Shown one piece after another: positions 47,158 to 55,057 of a stretch of 64,000 nt of DNA; position 1 is the first letter of the stretch, and every line of letters begins with the position of its first letter. The stretch lies in the IMG/VR virus record IMGVR_UViG_3300037311_000179; one strand, written 5' to 3'. The notes beneath the pieces are model-generated. The model was not told the origin of the DNA, did not search any database, and worked only from the letters and a program-made list of their open reading frames with translations. Source of the stretch: a virus. The translations under genes and the position numbers were made by a program.

Positions 47158-47301
47158 CTAAAATTGGATCTCCTCAGCCTCCTCTTCCCGGAACCATCTG
47201 GCGATCTTCAACGCTCCACGCATGGCGAGGAAACCGCAGGCGTGAGCCATAGAGCCTGCGATGAAGAGAGCGGACAGGATGAGCAGTACGACAGCTTTCA
47301 T
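47158..47301 (-). CDS. small membrane protein
   Basis: MKAVVLLILSALFIAG; GGAGG upstream of next gene; first ORF after the array. Confidence 0.45.
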   Translation of the reverse strand: MKAVVLLILSALFIAGSMAHACGFLAMRGALKIARWFREEEAEEIQF

Positions 47302-47327: not shown

Positions 47328-50012
47328 CCTTGGTGTGCATCGGGCCGACTCGGCAAGCGCCGCGACGCCTTGCCTTACAGACGGCTCATCGTCGCCTGTA
47401 TAAGAGCCCACCAGCAGATTCGAACTGCTGTGTTCCCGATATGGGCTAAGTTCCTTGGATTGAATAGCAGCGCGACGCTGGACCAAGGGTTGCATTGCGC
47501 CGAGTTATCCGAAATCAAACGTTCGAGCGACACCTTGGATTGCAACGCGAGGCTAGGCATTGGGAGGCACGAGCACGCCGCGGTTGGATGATTCTGAACG
47601 ATGCCTTGGATTAGTATGGATGACCGCACACAGGCGAGCGCTGCCGGGCGCAGCCGCCAATGCAGAGATCAATTCCTTGGATTGCAACGCGAGGCGAGGC
47701 GCTGGATCGCGGAGCGCCGACTCGCGCCGTGTGGTATCGAAATTTTCCTTGGATTGCATTGCACAGGACCGCAATGACCTGCGACACACTGCCACGCCTA
47801 ACGTCGATCGGCACCGGAGTGCAGACTCAGACCACCCGAACCTCACCAGAGATCCGGCTTTATCCTTGGAGCTCATTGCTCAGCCCTAGATTTCCCAGGA
47901 GGGGACTGCGGAGCATGGATATGTAGATGCTACTCAAATTCTCTTCTCGTATCAACCTTGGATTTCCATGTACTGCTCCAGAGCGCATCGGTTCGACCCG
48001 AATCGGATCGCACGGATTCATTTGATATCGAATAGCCTTGGATTGCTGCGGCGCAGGACGGTGCGGGCCGCCGCGACACGCAAGAAGTGAGTGATGTGTC
48101 TACTGGATCGCCGTTGTGCCAGCGAACGGCATTGCAAGAGATTGCCTTGGGATAGGACGCGACGCATCGCCCCGTAAACCGCGACGCTGCCGGATAAAGA
48201 CGATGATCCTGACAATTCCAGAATGAAGGTCCCTTGGATTGCGTTGACTCGGGAAGAATCGCGCTGCGAAGGACAGCAGAGGCAAGCGTTGAAAGTCTGA
48301 AATTGCGTCGATAGTACCGAGAGCGATTCCTTGGATTGGATGGGGTCGACACGGAGAGACTCGGGCAGCTAAGACCAGCCACGACTCGCGATGTACGCAT
48401 TCGAACAATATACGATTGGACGCTATTGCGTCTGTAACAGCCGCCTTGGATTACACAACAACGCCGTAGCAGGGACAGCGACGGATCGGAATGCGGATGA
48501 TGTCTCGACGCTCTTGTGTCTGGAGTAATTGCCTTGGATTGCAACGCGCAGCAAGAGGAGGAGCTGCCACGGATGACGTCGCTGCGGACCAGTCGTTCGT
48601 AGAATTTACCTTGGAATAGGTAGCTGGTGACTTGCAACGGGATACGATGCAGCGGCTCGCGACACTTTGAATTGCCATATCGGATGAGACGGCTGCATGC
48701 CTCGTGATTCTAAAACCTTGCTTTGCTCAGACGCGCAATGCTTCGGAAAGCCATAGGGAGGCGGGCGAAGCAACGCGCAGTATCATCGAATTCAAGCCTT
48801 GCCGTGCTGAGGGAAGGGTCAGATCGCGCAGACTCGCCCCGCGCCAGACCGTTTTCGGAAATAGTCATCCTTGCAATGCGAAACAAAAGAGCGGCTGGCA
48901 TCGCCTCGGACAGCATCGGCCCGTGAGTAGTCTACAACAATCCCGTGGAGTGCAGAAGGCTGCCTGAGTTTGCGCCGCCCCGCACCGACAGCGGCGTGAA
49001 TTCCATGTGATCCTTGGATTGATTCGCATTGGGCGGCTGCGGCGCAGGGGGCACAGGATAGGGCGGCACAGCAGCTCCCGGCAGCGATCGAAAACAATGC
49101 CTTGAAATGCAATGGGCTGCCTGAGCGCAGCGATGCGCTGCGACGCAATACGTCTGGAAGTCTCGACACGCATGATCCTTGGACTGCTACGCACTGGCTG
49201 GCACCGCGTCGCCTTACCGTGCAACAGGGTGCCACGATCTGCGCGTCTAAACGTCATGCAATTATCCTTGGAATACCGCGCAGCGGCTAGCCTCGACAGG
49301 CCGAGGGTGGCCTCGCGATGCCCATTCATTGATCACGCTACTCCGCGTACGCAGCGCAACAAGGATGACGAGACTCAGGCTTCGCAGTGCCGGTGGGGAA
49401 GATGAGATTTCAGAGATCTAAGGCGCTCGCAGAACGAACGCTCGATGCGTCGAAATGCCTTGATTAGCTATGGGGCGGGCGACTACGCCGCGCAGATGTC
49501 GGTGCCGTAATTCTTTATTCGAAGACTTGATTTGCCGTAGAGGAGATTGCCACGCGAAGCGGTGGTAGGCACTGTGATTCTGTTTTCTAGAATCCTTGGC
49601 TCGCCGCGCACAAGGCTGCCTCGCCGGAGCTGGGATGGCCGTGTGGTGCTAGCTCTCGGAGCCTCTCCTTACAGAAACTCATGATTTATCGCAACACCTT
49701 GGATTGCCATGCAACAGTATGCTTGGCCGGAGTGGGGAGGACCTAGTGTTTCCTGTTCTAAACCATTGCCTTGCAGCACCACAGCACGCATAGCCTGAGC
49801 GCGCGTTACGCCGCCCCACGATACATGGCTGCGATCTACATCCGTTTTATTCGTTTATCCTTGGATTGAATTGGATCGCCGCGCCAAGCGTGACCCGGCG
49901 CTGGGGGAGGCAGGTGATCGCTGCTTGATATCTCGACCCGTTATCACAGAAACCTTGGAGCGCATTGCGCGGACGTGGCGTACGCAGGCTCGCGATGCGC
50001 AGGATTGAGCAG
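47328..50012 (-). ncRNA. non-CRISPR guide-RNA-like array: about 30 units of Y(G/C)Y-NN pentamer runs ending in CAATCCAAGG (VIPR-like)
   Basis: CCTTGG (+) found at 47328, 47453, 47533, 47604, 47675, 47747, 47864, 47956, 48036, 48145, 48232, 48329, 48444, 48532, 48609, 49012, 49177, 49266, 49594, 49697, 49859, 49953, with variants near 48716, 48797, 48869, 48943, 49100, 49458, 49525, 49769; spacing mostly 69-117 nt; purine at every 5th base in phase with the anchor for about 10-15 periods; no credible ORF. The repeat is seen directly; RNA function is inferred. Confidence 0.8.
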
Positions 50013-50023
50013 AATTTGATCCG

Positions 50024-50782
50024 TCAGCCTTCGGACGACGGCTGATCCGTCTTCGCTCCCTTCTCGCGCGAGGGACGGGTTCTCTTCGGCGTCCCTTCGG
50101 CCTTGGCGCTCTCGCCGTCCTTGGTGTCGATCTGGCTGCGATGAAGCGTCCAGTTGTCGACGCGGAAGCGTCCGTAGGGACCCTTCTTCTGGGGCCGAAA
50201 GTCTCCGAGCCCGATCTCGTTGCCCGCGCGATCGACGATCTCGCGGACGGTCCGCTCCTGGTACTCTCGCAGGTTCGCTTCGATCACGAAGCGAAGCGCC
50301 CACCGATCGAACTGCGGGCGGCAGATACCGACGGCTTGGCCGCCGTTGGGGTTGGTGCCCTTCATGAGCGACATGACCCATGAAGCCTCTTGCGTGTTGT
50401 CCGCGGGATCGATCACCCGCGTGTACTCGCCGGAGAGGGTCATGATCGCCGCGAGCTTGCTGGAGTCCGCCGTCGAGACCTGCTTCTTGCCGTCGAGACG
50501 AACCGAACGACCAGCTTCGGCGAACGCGGAGAACAGGTTGCGCATCGGGATGCTGATGCGGCCGTCGGCGTCGCGGTAGATCTTCTCTTGGCACTGCTGG
50601 TCTGGATCGAGCTTCGGCGCGTTCTTGGACGGCTTCTCGCCGGTGACGAGCGTCATGAGGGCTTCCTGGCTCATGCGGTTCATGAGCAGAGGCGAGATGC
50701 CGACGAGATAGACCTCGATGAACGTCGTGCCGTTGCGTCCGCGAGTGGTGCCGAGGTTTTCTGGTGCGTTTCCGTCCATCAT
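50024..50782 (-). CDS. stand-alone Cas7/RAMP-like protein (Vipr-like)
   Basis: IEVYLVGISPLLMN (RAMP beta-1), DADGRISIPMRNLFSAFAEAG (RAMP IPgSslKG-like), RPQFDRWALRF, Gly-rich loop AGNEIGLGDFRPQKKGPYGRF; AAGGA SD before ATG 50782. Confidence 0.8.
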   Translation of the reverse strand: MMDGNAPENLGTTRGRNGTTFIEVYLVGISPLLMNRMSQEALMTLVTGEKPSKNAPKLDPDQQCQEKIYRDADGRISIPMRNLFSAFAEAGRSVRLDGKKQVSTADSSKLAAIMTLSGEYTRVIDPADNTQEASWVMSLMKGTNPNGGQAVGICRPQFDRWALRFVIEANLREYQERTVREIVDRAGNEIGLGDFRPQKKGPYGRFRVDNWTLHRSQIDTKDGESAKAEGTPKRTRPSREKGAKTDQPSSEG

Positions 50783-50868: not shown

Positions 50869-51717
50869 TCAGTAGGGCCTGTAATTCGAGATGTAGTCCG
50901 TGCAGATCTTCTCGAAAAACGAATTCGTATCCGCGATGGATGGAAGCACCCCCATGATTGGTAGCGCTGCCTTCGATTCGTCTTTTCTCATCCGTCGCAT
51001 GAAGCTGTCGTAGACACCCTGATGAAGTTGATCCGCCGCCTTTCTGAACGTTTCGAACGCAACATCATCGCTGGCGTCCAGCTTCCAGAAGATCCCCCTC
51101 ATGAACCACGCGAGCGCCAACGATCCAGGAAACGGTTGATACTGAATCTCCGCCATTTCAGCCAATATCGCATTGGCGGCGCTCTCGAACTGCCTGATGT
51201 TTCTGAAGTCGATCTCGTCCTCCTCGTACAACTCAAGCAGTTGAAGCGACTCCTGGATGAACGATACGATGATCTGCGACTGATCCTCCTCGAAGGTCAG
51301 CGGGTGGTAAATCTCGCGGTGCTCATCGTAGGACTTGAGCAGCATGGCCCTGACGCACCCTACTCCGAGCAGGTCGTTGTAGGAGATCAGACTGGCGACG
51401 AACGTTCCCAGATTCAGTTTGCGGAAATGATCGAAGATCGTCTGCCTTGCCGCGTCCGCGCCAGCCTCGCCGTGGTCCCTGTAGATGCTGCTCAGTCGCA
51501 CATCGAGATCCAGAATACGCGGCTTTCCCAGCGTGAACTGGCTCTCCAATTCCAGCAAATCGTCAACTGCCTCCGGCTCGACGAACTGAGCAGCTAGCAG
51601 CACCCAGATCTGAGAAAGGCATCCGATCTCCAGCCCCTTCTGAACGTTCGGATGGCCCTCGATCTTCTCGTAGATGCTGGCATTCACCAGCGGGTATTCT
51701 GGCAATGGTTGATTCAT
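50869..51717 (-). CDS. hypothetical protein, probable remote member of the paralog family
   Basis: VLLAAQFVEPEAVDDL / HGEAGADAARQTI / LISYNDLLGVGC align by eye with VLCAAIVDPANAEDA / RGATGIDLALQI / IITWDRLVGVWC. Confidence 0.55.
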   Translation of the reverse strand: MNQPLPEYPLVNASIYEKIEGHPNVQKGLEIGCLSQIWVLLAAQFVEPEAVDDLLELESQFTLGKPRILDLDVRLSSIYRDHGEAGADAARQTIFDHFRKLNLGTFVASLISYNDLLGVGCVRAMLLKSYDEHREIYHPLTFEEDQSQIIVSFIQESLQLLELYEEDEIDFRNIRQFESAANAILAEMAEIQYQPFPGSLALAWFMRGIFWKLDASDDVAFETFRKAADQLHQGVYDSFMRRMRKDESKAALPIMGVLPSIADTNSFFEKICTDYISNYRPY

Positions 51718-51742: not shown

Positions 51743-54700
51743 CTACTGCGAGGGGATCTTGACCTCGCAGACCTCTCCGTCGCAGTACCGATCTTCGCGC
51801 CCCTCGTCGTGAGTAGGACCTCGCAGTGCGCCGAAGTCCATCGGACGCAGGCTGGATGTCGCCGCGTAGTACTCGGCCTCGGAGATTGGCGTGTACGGAG
51901 CCTGAATGTACCCCGCGTCGCTCATGGGCAGGAAGCTGCACGTCTTCCATCGATCGGAGAACATCGCGAGCACCCGGCGAACCTCAGCCGTCTCCTCGGG
52001 GCGGAACGACAGCGTGACCGAGACCATGTTGTCGCTCCAATACGTTTGGAGCATCGTCAGTACTTCGGCCTTTTCCCAGATCGAGACCTCGCTATCCGTT
52101 CGGGTCTTGCTTTCGATCTTGACCGGGAAGTACGCGACCGAAGTACTCGGAGCGTAGAAGTCCTGCTCGATTCGATACCCCGCGGCCCGAAGCACTTCGA
52201 GCAGAGGGTTGCCGTGGTCGATGCGCACGAGCCGGTAGTAGAATTTCGCGGTCGGCCACTTCATGCCGCCCTCGACATTCCACAGGAGCGGCGATGTCCC
52301 TCCCGGCTTCACCGAGGTCAACCTCACGGAGCGTCCAACGCCCATCCAAGAGCTGTACTCTTCGTCGAGCTCGCGAAGGAATCGATACCCCTCGTCGAGC
52401 CAGCGCCGGGTCTCCTGCGCCCCCAGTCGGTCGTACAGATCCGCGATGCCCGCAGTGGAGATCCCGAGCCGGTGGTTGCGAGCCATCACCGCGTTGGCCT
52501 TGGGATCGTGGGTGGGAATGCACGAAATCGTCTTGCCGAGGACGTAGGCGTACTTGAGCGAGCGCTTCCAGTCTTCGAGCGAATCGTGCCTCGACGGGAA
52601 TGTCTCCGGCACGTTGCAGAGCTCGTGATGTTCGAGACCGATCTCGCCGCAGTTGTGGACGACGATGCCGTTTCCGACGAACGAAGACGTCGATGGTTCA
52701 GTGAGATCGTATACGTCCTCGACGCCGCACTCGTAGAGCGACTCCAGTTCCGATGTGAACGGCTCCGTCTTCACCGCGCGAGATTTCTTTGAGAGCAATT
52801 GCGCCAAGAACCGATCCATGTTCTTCGACAAAAAACCGATCTCCTCTGCGAAACGATCGAGACTACCGCCCCGAATCGAAAGATCGCAGCATGTGATGTC
52901 TCCGTTTTGCTCTGCGGAATACGCCGGAGCCGTAGAGAATGTCCGCTTGGTGCTGGAGAAGATCCTGAAATTCAGCAGGATTTGCTGAATCTTTCGGGCG
53001 GTATCAACGGTGAGAAACGCAAACGAAAGCGTCGGACCTTCCGTGTAGTCGAGATAGACTCGACCACCTGCGGTGAACATGGCTTCGAGGAATCCTCTCT
53101 GAAAGTCGCGCGTGCCTCGCCAGAGCAATTCTTCATTTCTGACGAAGCTGAGGTCTCGGAGATGAGGGTGTCTCAGAAATTGGCAGTCCGCTTCATCCTC
53201 TTTCGTGCGAGCGCTCAAATCGCCGGACGCACGCCAGAAGCGCGTGAGCACTGTCGATCTGTGCTCCGCTGACCTCCCCCGGAAGCGAAGCTCCTGCGTT
53301 TCGCCGTCATCCCCGCCGGTGCCAGCCATCCATCCTGCCACCACGCCGGAATCGTAATCGCCGAGATCTCCGAATGCTCCTTCGGTCGATGCGATATGGA
53401 TCAAATCCCACTCTTGGAGCTTGCACGCTTCGACCCATCCACGAGACGTCATCACGCGATGATCCGCAGTGAGGCGCAGCGCGTATCCGTCGGTCGTGGT
53501 CAAGCGATAGACCATCTTCGATCCAGTGAGGAAAGCTCCCGACTCGGTTGTCGATCCCTTCGGCCTGCCGGTCCGCAAGTCCAGGACAAGATCGCGCTGC
53601 ACACCGACCAAAGAGTCGATCCTCTCCATGCCCCGAGACGTCATCACGCGGGTATCGCCAGTGACGCACGGGTTCACCAGGATCACCCGCTCGTTTCCGG
53701 GCATCGGAGGATCTGCGAGTCGGCCGCGCTTCTGGATGCGATCCATCCAAACGTTTCCGGGCTCGCCGTTCCGATCGCGTGCCTCTGCGATCCGGCTGAA
53801 GTCTGTGCCCTCTTCAGAGAGGACCGCGTTGTTTGAGGCCCAGCGATGCGTCGAGAGCGGGTGAGCCCACTCCAGGGCCGAGAGACGTTGCCATTCCTCG
53901 TCCGCAGCGTACGCAGCGTCGATCTCGGCGTTGATCTCGTTCAGACGCCTCTGTTTCTCGGCGACCGCTTCCGGCGAGAATTCGGTGGCGTGAACCAGTT
54001 CGTAAGCGAGATCGGTCTTCTCGTTGTACTTCTCTTCGTTTGCAGCCGCAGCCAACCTCCACTCGTTCCTGACGTGGATTTCGCGCATCACCCTGCGCCG
54101 CCGGAGGTCTCGCAGCTCGGTGTCGTCCTTGAGCGCGATGAAATCGTCGTCATTGATCTCGCCGATGATGATCTCGGAGGACCGGCGATTGCCCCCGGCC
54201 ACGACGCAGACTCCGATCATGTTCGCGATGTCAGCGATCATCGAGCTCGTGATCACCTTGCCGACGTGAGGCGAGAGCAGCGCTTCTACTTCGCGCAGCA
54301 GCCGCCGCAGAGGCTCTGGACCTCCCGACCTGCCACCGAACGACATGAGCGGCGCTCCGGCCGGTCTGATGAGCGACAGATCGTATCTGCGGGGCACTTC
54401 AGCACCATGGCCGTACCCACGCAGCAGCACGCCCAGCGCCTCCACCCATCCCTCGCGCGAATCCTTGACGACGAAAACCTCTTCCGTCACTCGCGGCTGC
54501 TGGATCGTCAGCGTCCCCTCCCCGCGCACATCGGTGCCGACACCTGCGCCGCACATCAGCAGGTCCATCATCCAGCAGAACGGCTCGGCGAAGTCGTCTG
54601 CGATGAATTTCGTGGAAACGGCTGCGCAGTTGAAAAGTGGTGCCGATCCCTTCTCTTCGAGCGCCTTGGTCCCGAGGAACCAAAGCATTCGCCCCGAGCC

Positions 54701-55057
54701 GGTGAATTTCCCCTGCCAGTACCGCGTGAAGAACTCCTCCGCGTGCCGGTGCGCGATGCTCTCTTCCCAGTGCTGCCCGAGGAGCTTGAGCTGCTGTCGC
54801 TGGCGCGAGTAGATCTCCTCGGTGTTCCGCTGGCAGACCTCCCACCACTCTTCACTGCCCTCCGTCGGCAGCCCGAACTTTTCGCGCTGCCACTTCTGCT
54901 CTTCGGTCAGATCTCGCGCGTAGGTGCGCTTGAAAACTGGGTACCCGACCGGACCCCACTCCGGCTGCTTTCCCGCGAACTGCCGAAGAAACGTCTCGCG
55001 CAATCGGAAACGAAACTTCGGGAACAGTGGGGCCACGTAGTCAATTCGCTCGTCCAT
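51743..55057 (-). CDS. nrdJ: class II (B12-dependent) ribonucleotide reductase with intein
   Basis: VFKRTYAR, GSGRMLW, LFNCA, LMCGAGVG, VVAGGNRRSSEI, WASNN, NP|CGEI after intein removal, TSVKPGGT, WSDNMVSVT. Confidence 0.92.
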   Translation of the reverse strand: MDERIDYVAPLFPKFRFRLRETFLRQFAGKQPEWGPVGYPVFKRTYARDLTEEQKWQREKFGLPTEGSEEWWEVCQRNTEEIYSRQRQQLKLLGQHWEESIAHRHAEEFFTRYWQGKFTGSGRMLWFLGTKALEEKGSAPLFNCAAVSTKFIADDFAEPFCWMMDLLMCGAGVGTDVRGEGTLTIQQPRVTEEVFVVKDSREGWVEALGVLLRGYGHGAEVPRRYDLSLIRPAGAPLMSFGGRSGGPEPLRRLLREVEALLSPHVGKVITSSMIADIANMIGVCVVAGGNRRSSEIIIGEINDDDFIALKDDTELRDLRRRRVMREIHVRNEWRLAAAANEEKYNEKTDLAYELVHATEFSPEAVAEKQRRLNEINAEIDAAYAADEEWQRLSALEWAHPLSTHRWASNNAVLSEEGTDFSRIAEARDRNGEPGNVWMDRIQKRGRLADPPMPGNERVILVNPCVTGDTRVMTSRGMERIDSLVGVQRDLVLDLRTGRPKGSTTESGAFLTGSKMVYRLTTTDGYALRLTADHRVMTSRGWVEACKLQEWDLIHIASTEGAFGDLGDYDSGVVAGWMAGTGGDDGETQELRFRGRSAEHRSTVLTRFWRASGDLSARTKEDEADCQFLRHPHLRDLSFVRNEELLWRGTRDFQRGFLEAMFTAGGRVYLDYTEGPTLSFAFLTVDTARKIQQILLNFRIFSSTKRTFSTAPAYSAEQNGDITCCDLSIRGGSLDRFAEEIGFLSKNMDRFLAQLLSKKSRAVKTEPFTSELESLYECGVEDVYDLTEPSTSSFVGNGIVVHNCGEIGLEHHELCNVPETFPSRHDSLEDWKRSLKYAYVLGKTISCIPTHDPKANAVMARNHRLGISTAGIADLYDRLGAQETRRWLDEGYRFLRELDEEYSSWMGVGRSVRLTSVKPGGTSPLLWNVEGGMKWPTAKFYYRLVRIDHGNPLLEVLRAAGYRIEQDFYAPSTSVAYFPVKIESKTRTDSEVSIWEKAEVLTMLQTYWSDNMVSVTLSFRPEETAEVRRVLAMFSDRWKTCSFLPMSDAGYIQAPYTPISEAEYYAATSSLRPMDFGALRGPTHDEGREDRYCDGEVCEVKIPSQ
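52652..53668 (-). mobile_element. intein (339 aa) with LAGLIDADG-like homing endonuclease remnant
   Basis: Begins CVTGDTRV, block B LRLTADHRV, ends VYDLT..SFVGNGIVVHN before extein Cys; internal GVVAGWMAGTGG and GFLEAMFTAGG blocks. Confidence 0.92.

Follow-up and report, generated by a model that had tools for sequence, protein, structure and literature searches.

VIPR is a CRISPR-related, RNA-guided viral DNA-silencing system that was first described in 2026. According to the text of the describing report, it combines a minimal RAMP protein (Vipr, with an RRM core, a G-loop, and a thumb) with vrRNAs composed of 9-16 GGY-NN pentamers and a 3' tail, and the NN pairs read double-stranded DNA (dsDNA) with one skipped base per pair (10.64898/2026.04.26.720920). 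Structures are available (10.64898/2026.04.26.720927), with the Vipr protein of Escherichia phage SUSP1 deposited as PDB 36pp, and DNA engagement in SUSP1 VIPR starts from the 3' end. Mechanistic knowledge so far rests on two type II systems that are closely related to each other. Repeats other than GGY are also in print: the methods section of the first report gives the non-canonical forms YNNNG, NNNGG, and NNNNG (10.64898/2026.04.26.720920), and the text of a later report names GAC/NN, CAC/NN, WGT/NN, and TGH/NN clusters (10.64898/2026.10.21.760802). Here we analyzed 64,000 nucleotides of viral DNA (IMG/VR record IMGVR_UViG_3300037311_000179; this whole stretch is called the window), in which positions 47328-50023 on the minus strand very probably constitute the vrRNA array of a virus-encoded VIPR system. 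This identification is made because a Vipr homologue with a match to the 36pp structure and a Cas7/Csm3 fold is encoded immediately upstream and because the array follows a 5-nt grammar.

The Vipr gene and the pentamer array

The vipr gene (50024-50779, minus strand; ATG at 50779, stop at 50024) encodes a stand-alone RAMP/Cas7-like protein of 251 amino acids. A profile built from 50 of 98 metagenomic homologues matched PDB 36pp ("SUSP1 Vipr protein") over its full length (positions 2-195 of 203, E=2.6e-18), and 36pp was also the best PDB match of the single sequence (E=0.062), aligned on the G-loop, which reads GLGDFRP in the window and GVGDWRP in SUSP1. The AlphaFold2 (AF2) model had a pLDDT of 84 with Csm3/Cas7 as top Foldseek matches (E ~1e-6), and the protein matched phrog_4652 and no Pfam family. 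Among the published VIPR types I-VII, comparison was made with the SUSP1 (type II) Vipr only, whose contact residues R138, D177, and R179 are kept in the window protein as R154, D193, and R195, whereas H17 is replaced by N34 and W178 by F194, and a charged C-terminal extension of 40 amino acids is present that SUSP1 does not have.

The array starts one base past the vipr stop codon (50024) and lies on the same strand. It comprises 29 units ending in CAAGG, with anchors from 47328 to 49953 on the minus strand (23 of the 29 read CCAAGG, and the unit ends are mostly AATCCAAGG), plus two degenerate ends (49525 and 48943) that were added by a position-weight scan, which covered both strands of the entire window and found units confined to the array. 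Unit length is 71-192 nt, with a last unit of 40 nt, and each unit holds ~11 pentamers in a strict 5-nt register. In unit 24 (47675-47746, minus strand), for example, an 8-nt AT-rich linker is followed by 11 variable pentamers and the closure TGC-AA-TCC-AA-GG. This unit reads as it had been quoted in the original prediction, an earlier note made from the letters of the window, and the runs counted there were also correct: 12 in-phase C in the unit at 48232, 15 in-phase pyrimidines in the unit at 47747, and 11-12 in the units at 49012, 49859, and 49953. The central proposal of that note, a VIPR-type array without the GGY scaffold, agrees with the presence of a Vipr gene directly upstream on the same strand and with the recurrence of the scaffold in sister viruses, described below.

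With units right-justified on the CAAGG anchor and information computed per column, phase 0 (-10 to -50) was a pyrimidine in 25-28 of the 29 units (0.6-1.3 bit; ~75% C), phase 1 was G or C, with A in only 0-1 of the 29 units (0.4-1.0 bit), and phase 2, the first triplet base, was weak (0.1-0.45 bit; C.31, G.34, T.26, A.09), and the two positions 3' of the pyrimidine carried 0.0-0.16 bit. Entropy is thus unequal among the phases, as had been anticipated, the pyrimidine and G/C positions being the informative ones. The scaffold is b-S-Y, that is, not A, then G or C, then a pyrimidine (mostly C), followed by two free positions. The triplet first proposed, Y(G/C)Y, stands at its second and third positions; its first base has to be widened to "not A", G being as common there as C or T. 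Canonical GGY is not what the array contains, with G at ~34% of first positions, G at ~50% and C at ~40% of second positions, and the pyrimidine kept at ~91%. The autocorrelation of C in the array showed the expected peak at lag 5 (0.16), with further peaks at lags 10 and 15 (0.13 and 0.14), against -0.014 +/- 0.017 (maximum 0.025) in the remainder of the window and <=0.06 in 500 shuffles, which places the lag-5 value ~9 standard deviations over the remainder of the window.

The 12-nt closure is in register with the repeats and resembles two final pentamers with AA as a fixed variable pair and then GG, the one invariant GG that a unit has. Counts from -11 to -1 were G22, C20, A24, A18, T22, and C22 of 29, then CAAGG; the closure TGC-AA-TCC-AA-GG as originally formulated is conserved, but well conserved only over these positions. 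No conserved 3' tail or pseudoknot was found, the sequence downstream of CAAGG carrying <0.6 bit. Because DNA engagement in SUSP1 proceeds from the 3' end, we infer that the closure may act as a cap or assembly start that replaces the pseudoknot tail. The linkers of the window are AT-rich and showed no conserved structure and no fold excess (mean z = -0.13), no Rfam ribozyme or other known RNA was matched in the window array even at E up to 1, and promoters and terminators within the array were not above shuffles.

The locus has both of the features that define VIPR, a Vipr protein and pentamer vrRNAs. With type II VIPR (Escherichia phage SUSP1 and a Pseudomonas fulva prophage) it shares a full-length homologous stand-alone RAMP protein, a viral context, units in the range of 9-16 pentamers with three constrained and two hypervariable positions, and an array downstream of vipr on the same strand. 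It deviates from the VIPR norm in five respects: the scaffold is b-S-Y, whereas that of SUSP1 is GGY; ~31 guides are packed into 2.7 kb, compared with four guides in SUSP1; the structured tail, a ~40-nt pseudoknot in SUSP1, is missing; the units end instead in the in-register AA-AA-GG closure; and no vap gene was recognized, whereas SUSP1 type II has a vap1-like gene. The missing GGY does not exclude membership, because the family description admits "a related consensus". Non-canonical VIPR arrays resemble that of the window in their 5-nt period, divergent or partly degenerate triplet, adjoining gene of Vipr fold, and ~10 repeats per RNA; the window motif (B, then G/C, with a dominant C in third position) is not among the examples in the text of the papers and may have been described elsewhere in them. 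As non-canonical triplets are already in print, the locus is another variant of a known theme, and of the "variant code" that had been proposed, the variant scaffold stands while the word code overstates the case.

Class 1 CRISPR RNA (crRNA)-Cas7 complexes share with the locus the RAMP fold (the Csm3/Cas7 matches), guides arrayed beside the protein gene, and, as would be expected on the VIPR side, one protomer per fixed RNA step, but the step is 6 nt with 5 paired in CRISPR class 1 and 5 nt with 2 paired in the window. CRISPR-Cas loci have direct repeats of ~23-50 nt, unique spacers, and adaptation genes, whereas the locus, with its viral context, has no long direct repeats and no cas1 or cas2 among the neighboring ORFs. 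TIGR-Tas differs in its ~18-nt period and Nop-domain Tas protein, as opposed to period 5 and a neighboring RAMP protein.

Relatives, tRNA-like elements, and strain comparison

Vipr relatives were found at 222 loci in IMG/VR versus only 2 in 185,579 species genomes, and the two GTDB relatives are contigs of metagenome-assembled genomes (Planctomycetaceae and Terriglobales; 37-42% identity). Scaffold and neighborhood were surveyed in 80 of the 222 IMG/VR loci. GGYNN runs lay almost only on the vipr strand, 4 of the 80 loci having one run on the opposite strand, and the triplets formed a gradient that begins with strict GGY, passes through nGY (published as YNNNG), and ends in nSY, the G-or-C form. 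The nearest distinct relatives, the sister viruses L166, L167, and L168 (56-60% Vipr identity), have in common with the window the gene order MazG, radical-SAM-like gene, class II ribonucleotide reductase (RNR), vipr, and array. Their arrays follow the same b-S-Y grammar (Y is C in 73-82%; S is 53-79% G and 14-29% C; the first position is weakly constrained) and end in the same closure, TGCAATCCAAGG. Because grammar and closure recur in these viruses, the relaxed scaffold is a clade trait, not decay, and not peculiar to the window array.

Covariation of the equivalents of SUSP1 H17 and W178 with the relaxation of the scaffold was considered and rejected, the former being N in 81 of 81 and the latter F in 80 of 81 family members, whatever their scaffold. 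The equivalent of SUSP1 M72, in the pocket for the triplet pyrimidine, was N alongside C-using arrays (mean 0.76 C) and M alongside T-using ones (mean 0.29 C), and the E71-equivalent position split similarly; in the 81-locus Vipr alignment, both patterns are confounded by phylogeny.

In the sister arrays (L168:6790-8440, L166:6693-8070, and L167:6723-7428), a conserved tRNA-like minihelix follows every unit. That of L168 consists of a 6-bp acceptor-like stem stacked on a 6-bp stem with an GTTCGAGTC T-loop, with compensatory change in 11 of 12 pairs, and the variant of L166 and L167 has a TGCAAnT loop, 91% of cells paired, and a covariation of 0.66 versus 0.23 in shuffles; both helices are backed by compensatory changes. 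No Rfam ribozyme matched the sister arrays, and the best sub-threshold Rfam match in L168 was mascRNA-menRNA (RF01684; 27.2 bits, E=0.0076), under the gathering score. A covariance model (R1) built on the L168 array had one match in the window, at 47400-47448 on the minus strand (44.5 bits, E=1.5e-10). This element lies in the linker of unit 28, has an acceptor-like stem and a T-arm with the loop GTTCGAATC, and is the only intact copy in the array; it is identical in the strains L161 and L164 and present in L162. The covariance model of the L168 element had no match in ~70 other Vipr loci, and no tRNA genes were found. The linker motif TTCGA was rejected as a relic of lost T-loops, as it occurs 3.0 times per kb in the array and 2.7 times per kb in the window.

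Like mascRNA/MALAT1 (RF01684), the sister minihelix mimics an acceptor stem and T-arm beside a functional RNA and could be excised by host RNase P/Z; it differs in being a bacterial-virus element, in having an 11-nt bulge where the D and anticodon arms would be, and in that its cleavage is predicted. Engineered polycistronic tRNA-guide RNA (gRNA) arrays likewise flank functional RNAs with an acceptor-stem and T-arm mimic that host RNase P/Z could excise. If true, tRNA-like punctuation would be a natural counterpart of these engineered arrays, and the sister arrays suggest it as a third route of vrRNA release, of practical interest for multiplexed guide expression. Many vrRNAs per transcript combined with a release device are also described for the hammerhead-interspersed or staggered arrays of types I and V (10.64898/2026.04.26.720920, figs S18-S19), in which the device is a ribozyme, as against the tRNA-like minihelix of L166-L168, of which the window keeps one. 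The main text of the VIPR papers makes no mention of tRNA (10.64898/2026.04.26.720920 and 10.64898/2026.04.26.720927). Judging from these elements, the sister lineages probably use tRNA-type punctuation with RNase P/Z-type processing at the minihelices, and the units of the window would be released mostly by host RNases at exposed, unstructured AT-rich linkers.

Three strains of the virus, from other public samples, were available for comparison with the window. The array of L164, a JGI contig from an independent sample, is identical to that of the window, and the array of L161, an activated-sludge strain, differs by 2-3%. Units 9 and 10 (77 and 88 nt; 49008-49172, minus strand) are both absent from L161; the joint, a 165-nt skip with 11 letters shared across it, was seen in reads and confirmed by the L161 alignment, and the shared letters are conserved unit ends. 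In L162, a freshwater strain, 13-21% of aligned array sites differ, compared with 1.8% in the 3' flank and a synonymous divergence (dS) of 0.02 and nonsynonymous divergence (dN) of 0.013 in vipr. In the L162 array, deletions have removed one whole unit and portions of three more, three units are inserted, and one is replaced, and indels of 5 or 10 nt preserve the register. The comparison of related arrays that the original prediction had called for thus reveals gain and loss of whole units between strains. Unit 24 (47675-47746) is nearly unchanged in both L161 and L162.

The substitutions between strains preserve base classes: 29 of 35 at Y sites were C<->T, and C<->G accounted for 11 of 30 substitutions at S sites versus 8 of 172 in NN pairs and linkers. 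Closure positions changed at half the rate of the remaining array. Scaffold positions changed as often as NN and linker positions, and NN positions changed no faster than linkers; positive selection on the addresses is therefore not demonstrated by the strain data alone. The class-preserving substitutions and register-keeping indels argue for a working array under pentamer constraint, whose turnover is much faster than that of its neighbors. Recombination with diverged arrays is an alternative explanation for the divergence of the array.

The same data bear on whether the VIPR array is decaying or disused, its relaxed triplet and degenerate units then reflecting lost constraint. Such a history would fit a second triplet position that is only ~50% G, the presence of some phase-shifted or degenerate units, scaffold positions as changeable as the rest, the lack of identified targets described below, and the loss, relative to sister arrays, of all tRNA-like spacers but one. 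We nevertheless regard decay as improbable, given a substitution spectrum that keeps C<->T at Y and C<->G at S, indels that keep the 5-nt register or drop whole units, a grammar and closure that persist in viruses with Vipr only 56-60% identical, a vipr gene that is intact and near-invariant between strains, and an identical array in the independent sample L164.

Target searches and proposed mechanism

Several results weigh against the identification of the region as a vrRNA array. Guides were converted to NNx patterns by the published 1-nt-skip rule and searched as exact seeds of 16-22 specified bases, 7 of ~27 guides being included; in IMG/VR and the JGI metagenomes, these 7 guides gave chance-level matches only, with no extension into the left-out NN pairs. 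Mismatch-tolerant scans of the window, 1.9 Mb of loci, and the strain and sister genomes gave results equal to those of shuffled guides. The units at 49100, 48609, and 47368 are degenerate or out of phase. At the second triplet position, C is about as frequent as G, although the SUSP1 residues holding G2 are kept (R154) or conservatively changed (F for W), and the published G1/G2 contact positions do not vary with the scaffold within the family. No vap gene was recognized, the flanking genes having no Pfam or PHROG match and no neighbor family in common with the 80 loci. Finally, no public run containing this virus is recorded as RNA, and the one "RNA?" run, with only two 150-nt contigs, is flagged as probably DNA.

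In IMG/VR, seeds of 16-18 specified bases from units 47675, 48329, 49177, 47747, 48716, and 48532 had 1, 7, 21, 3, 44, 2, and 5 matches, and in the JGI metagenomes guide 47675 (22 bases) had 0 and guide 48532 (20 bases) 1 independent match. Two IMG/VR seeds that included the fixed AA-AA pairs found no target. There were no self-targets, as in published systems, and no targets in the strain or sister genomes. The best IMG/VR match, of guide 48716 to the integrase of an AT-rich virus (L151) over 10 contiguous NN pairs, was rejected because the skipped base fell on codon position 1, the GC content was unlike that of this virus, and p was ~0.2 after multiple tests. A match of guide 48532 at 20/20 bases in a UspA-like gene (L159:6446-6474 and L160:5632-5660, near-identical metagenome contigs) was set aside because ~1 was expected by chance, there was no AA-AA extension, and no second guide matched the contig. 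The GC content of these contigs was 0.61, like that of the virus, and the skipped base was on codon position 1. Reading the guides as degenerate peptides gave no recognizable motif.

The best-match fraction in the window was slightly higher for skip 1 than for skips 0, 2, and 3, a weak signal (0.739 vs 0.728 +/- 0.006 in shuffles). The composition of the NN pairs fitted sense-strand codon positions 1-2 (+13.9 bits, versus negative values for the five other frames; the first N was 40% G), which gives a weak hint that the targets may be coding sequences in which the wobble base is the one skipped. Of the original proposal that the NN pairs form a gapped address, the hypervariability stands, as in published vrRNAs, but gapped matches showed no excess over controls in what was an underpowered search. 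Because no target excess was found, the address function of the pairs would follow from family membership.

The RNAs could instead act with Vipr under a different address rule, such as another skip length, pairing of the first triplet base, or RNA targets, which a 1-nt-skip search would miss. Compatible with such a rule are the failure to find 1-nt-skip targets, a scaffold that differs at two of the three triplet positions, and the N found in 81 of 81 family members at the place of the G1-contacting H17 of SUSP1. However, the slight preference for skip 1 in the window points, if weakly, to the published rule, the published geometry is set by thumb and G-loop residues that are conserved here, and exact seeds from 7 of ~27 guides make for a narrow search, so that we consider a different rule very unlikely. 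That the region is no guide array at all, but coding sequence, a CRISPR or TIGR array, or a set of DNA repeats bound by protein (iterons or sites for packaging or partition), deserves almost no credence, for although spurious open reading frames (ORFs) of 100-235 amino acids overlap the region and the short motif CCAAGG recurs, period 5 is incompatible with coding, no reading frame would survive the strain indels of 5 nt or of whole units, the array contains no CRISPR-type direct repeats (20-50 nt), tandem repeats, or 18-nt period (its conserved element spans 9-12 nt), the signal of the pentamers is specific to one strand and runs in the direction of vipr across 80 loci, and no cas1 or cas2 was found among the neighboring ORFs.

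For the preferred reading, a vrRNA array of a VIPR system, the SUSP1 mechanism suggests how the locus might work. The array would be transcribed with vipr or just behind it on the minus strand. One Vipr protomer per pentamer would sequester the b-S-Y triplet and present the two variable bases, and the ~9-11 NN pairs of a unit would jointly read and silence a dsDNA target in which one base is skipped after each pair (NNxNNx...). The in-phase closure would serve as the 3' cap or assembly start in place of the pseudoknot tail, and host RNases would release the units, in sister lineages at the minihelices and in the window mostly at the linkers.

A more far-reaching account that joins these elements is possible, though we hold it only tentatively. 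A freshwater/wastewater lineage of large viruses with VIPR may have re-engineered its guide, with a triplet reduced to S-Y, AA-AA-GG serving as cap or seed (which would impose a demand for AAxAA resembling a protospacer adjacent motif), release by tRNA enzymes, and the array as a diversification hot spot. Under this account, dozens of guides would come from one transcript, the window virus would since have lost all minihelices but one, and the array would evolve 7-10 times faster than vipr synonymous sites through unit shuffling and scaffold-keeping substitutions.

In this locus and its relatives, the triplet relaxes to S-Y while the published RNA-contact residues stay the same, and this opens the rules by which Vipr recognizes RNA to direct tests. 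The ~31 guides are one of the largest repertoires seen beside a single vipr gene, and the strains form a natural series that displays the gain, loss, and rewriting of guides. The general view of VIPR is left unchanged by this locus; of most interest beyond it are the putative tRNA-like punctuation of the sister arrays and the rapid turnover of guides from strain to strain, in which the grammar is kept.

Gene neighborhood and further observations

The viral context of the locus is indicated by window genes including a class II RNR, MazG, and a phage topoisomerase PHROG. A small ORF (47158-47301, minus strand; 47 amino acids with a hydrophobic N-terminus) lies just downstream, marks the 3' limit of the array, and is 1.8% different from its L162 counterpart, versus 13-21% for the array. 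Upstream, between the RNR and vipr, lies a gene of 282 amino acids (50869-51717, minus strand) with no Pfam or PHROG match, which cannot be recognized as a vap accessory gene, is present in the strains and some sister loci, and is not among the neighbor families conserved across the 80 Vipr loci. Compared with L162, its dS was 0.16 and its dN 0.065; between strains, dS ranged from 0.16 to 0.19 and dN from 0.046 to 0.066, versus a dS of 0.006-0.02 in the adjoining vipr.

In ~20 of the 80 relatives (including L003, L004, and L005), vipr belongs to a replication module of AAA_24 ATPase, DUF669, vipr, RusA resolvase, and ResIII/DEAD helicase, unlike the window vipr, which sits behind the RNR. The helicase of this module may correspond to the published helicase-type vap. 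The class II RNR (51743-55057 in the window, minus strand; L164:1726-5040) carries an intein with a LAGLIDADG domain and is 1104 amino acids long, and that of L161 (2740-5037) is intein-free with 765 amino acids; among the sister viruses, lengths were 766-769 versus 1086-1121 amino acids.

A JGI contig of 198,335 bases encodes a 252-amino-acid variant of the window Vipr (P0101), so the virus or element may extend well beyond the 64 kb of the window. In the part that was annotated, no terminase or portal gene was seen.

Two further relatives with 42% Vipr identity and a b-S-T triplet, L001 (2340-2460) and L002 (460-580), have a conserved stretch of ~110 nt just upstream of the first vrRNA, which has no Rfam match. 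In both, the last pentamers run into the ribosome-binding site of vipr (...ACTGAGG, with the ATG 8 nt further).

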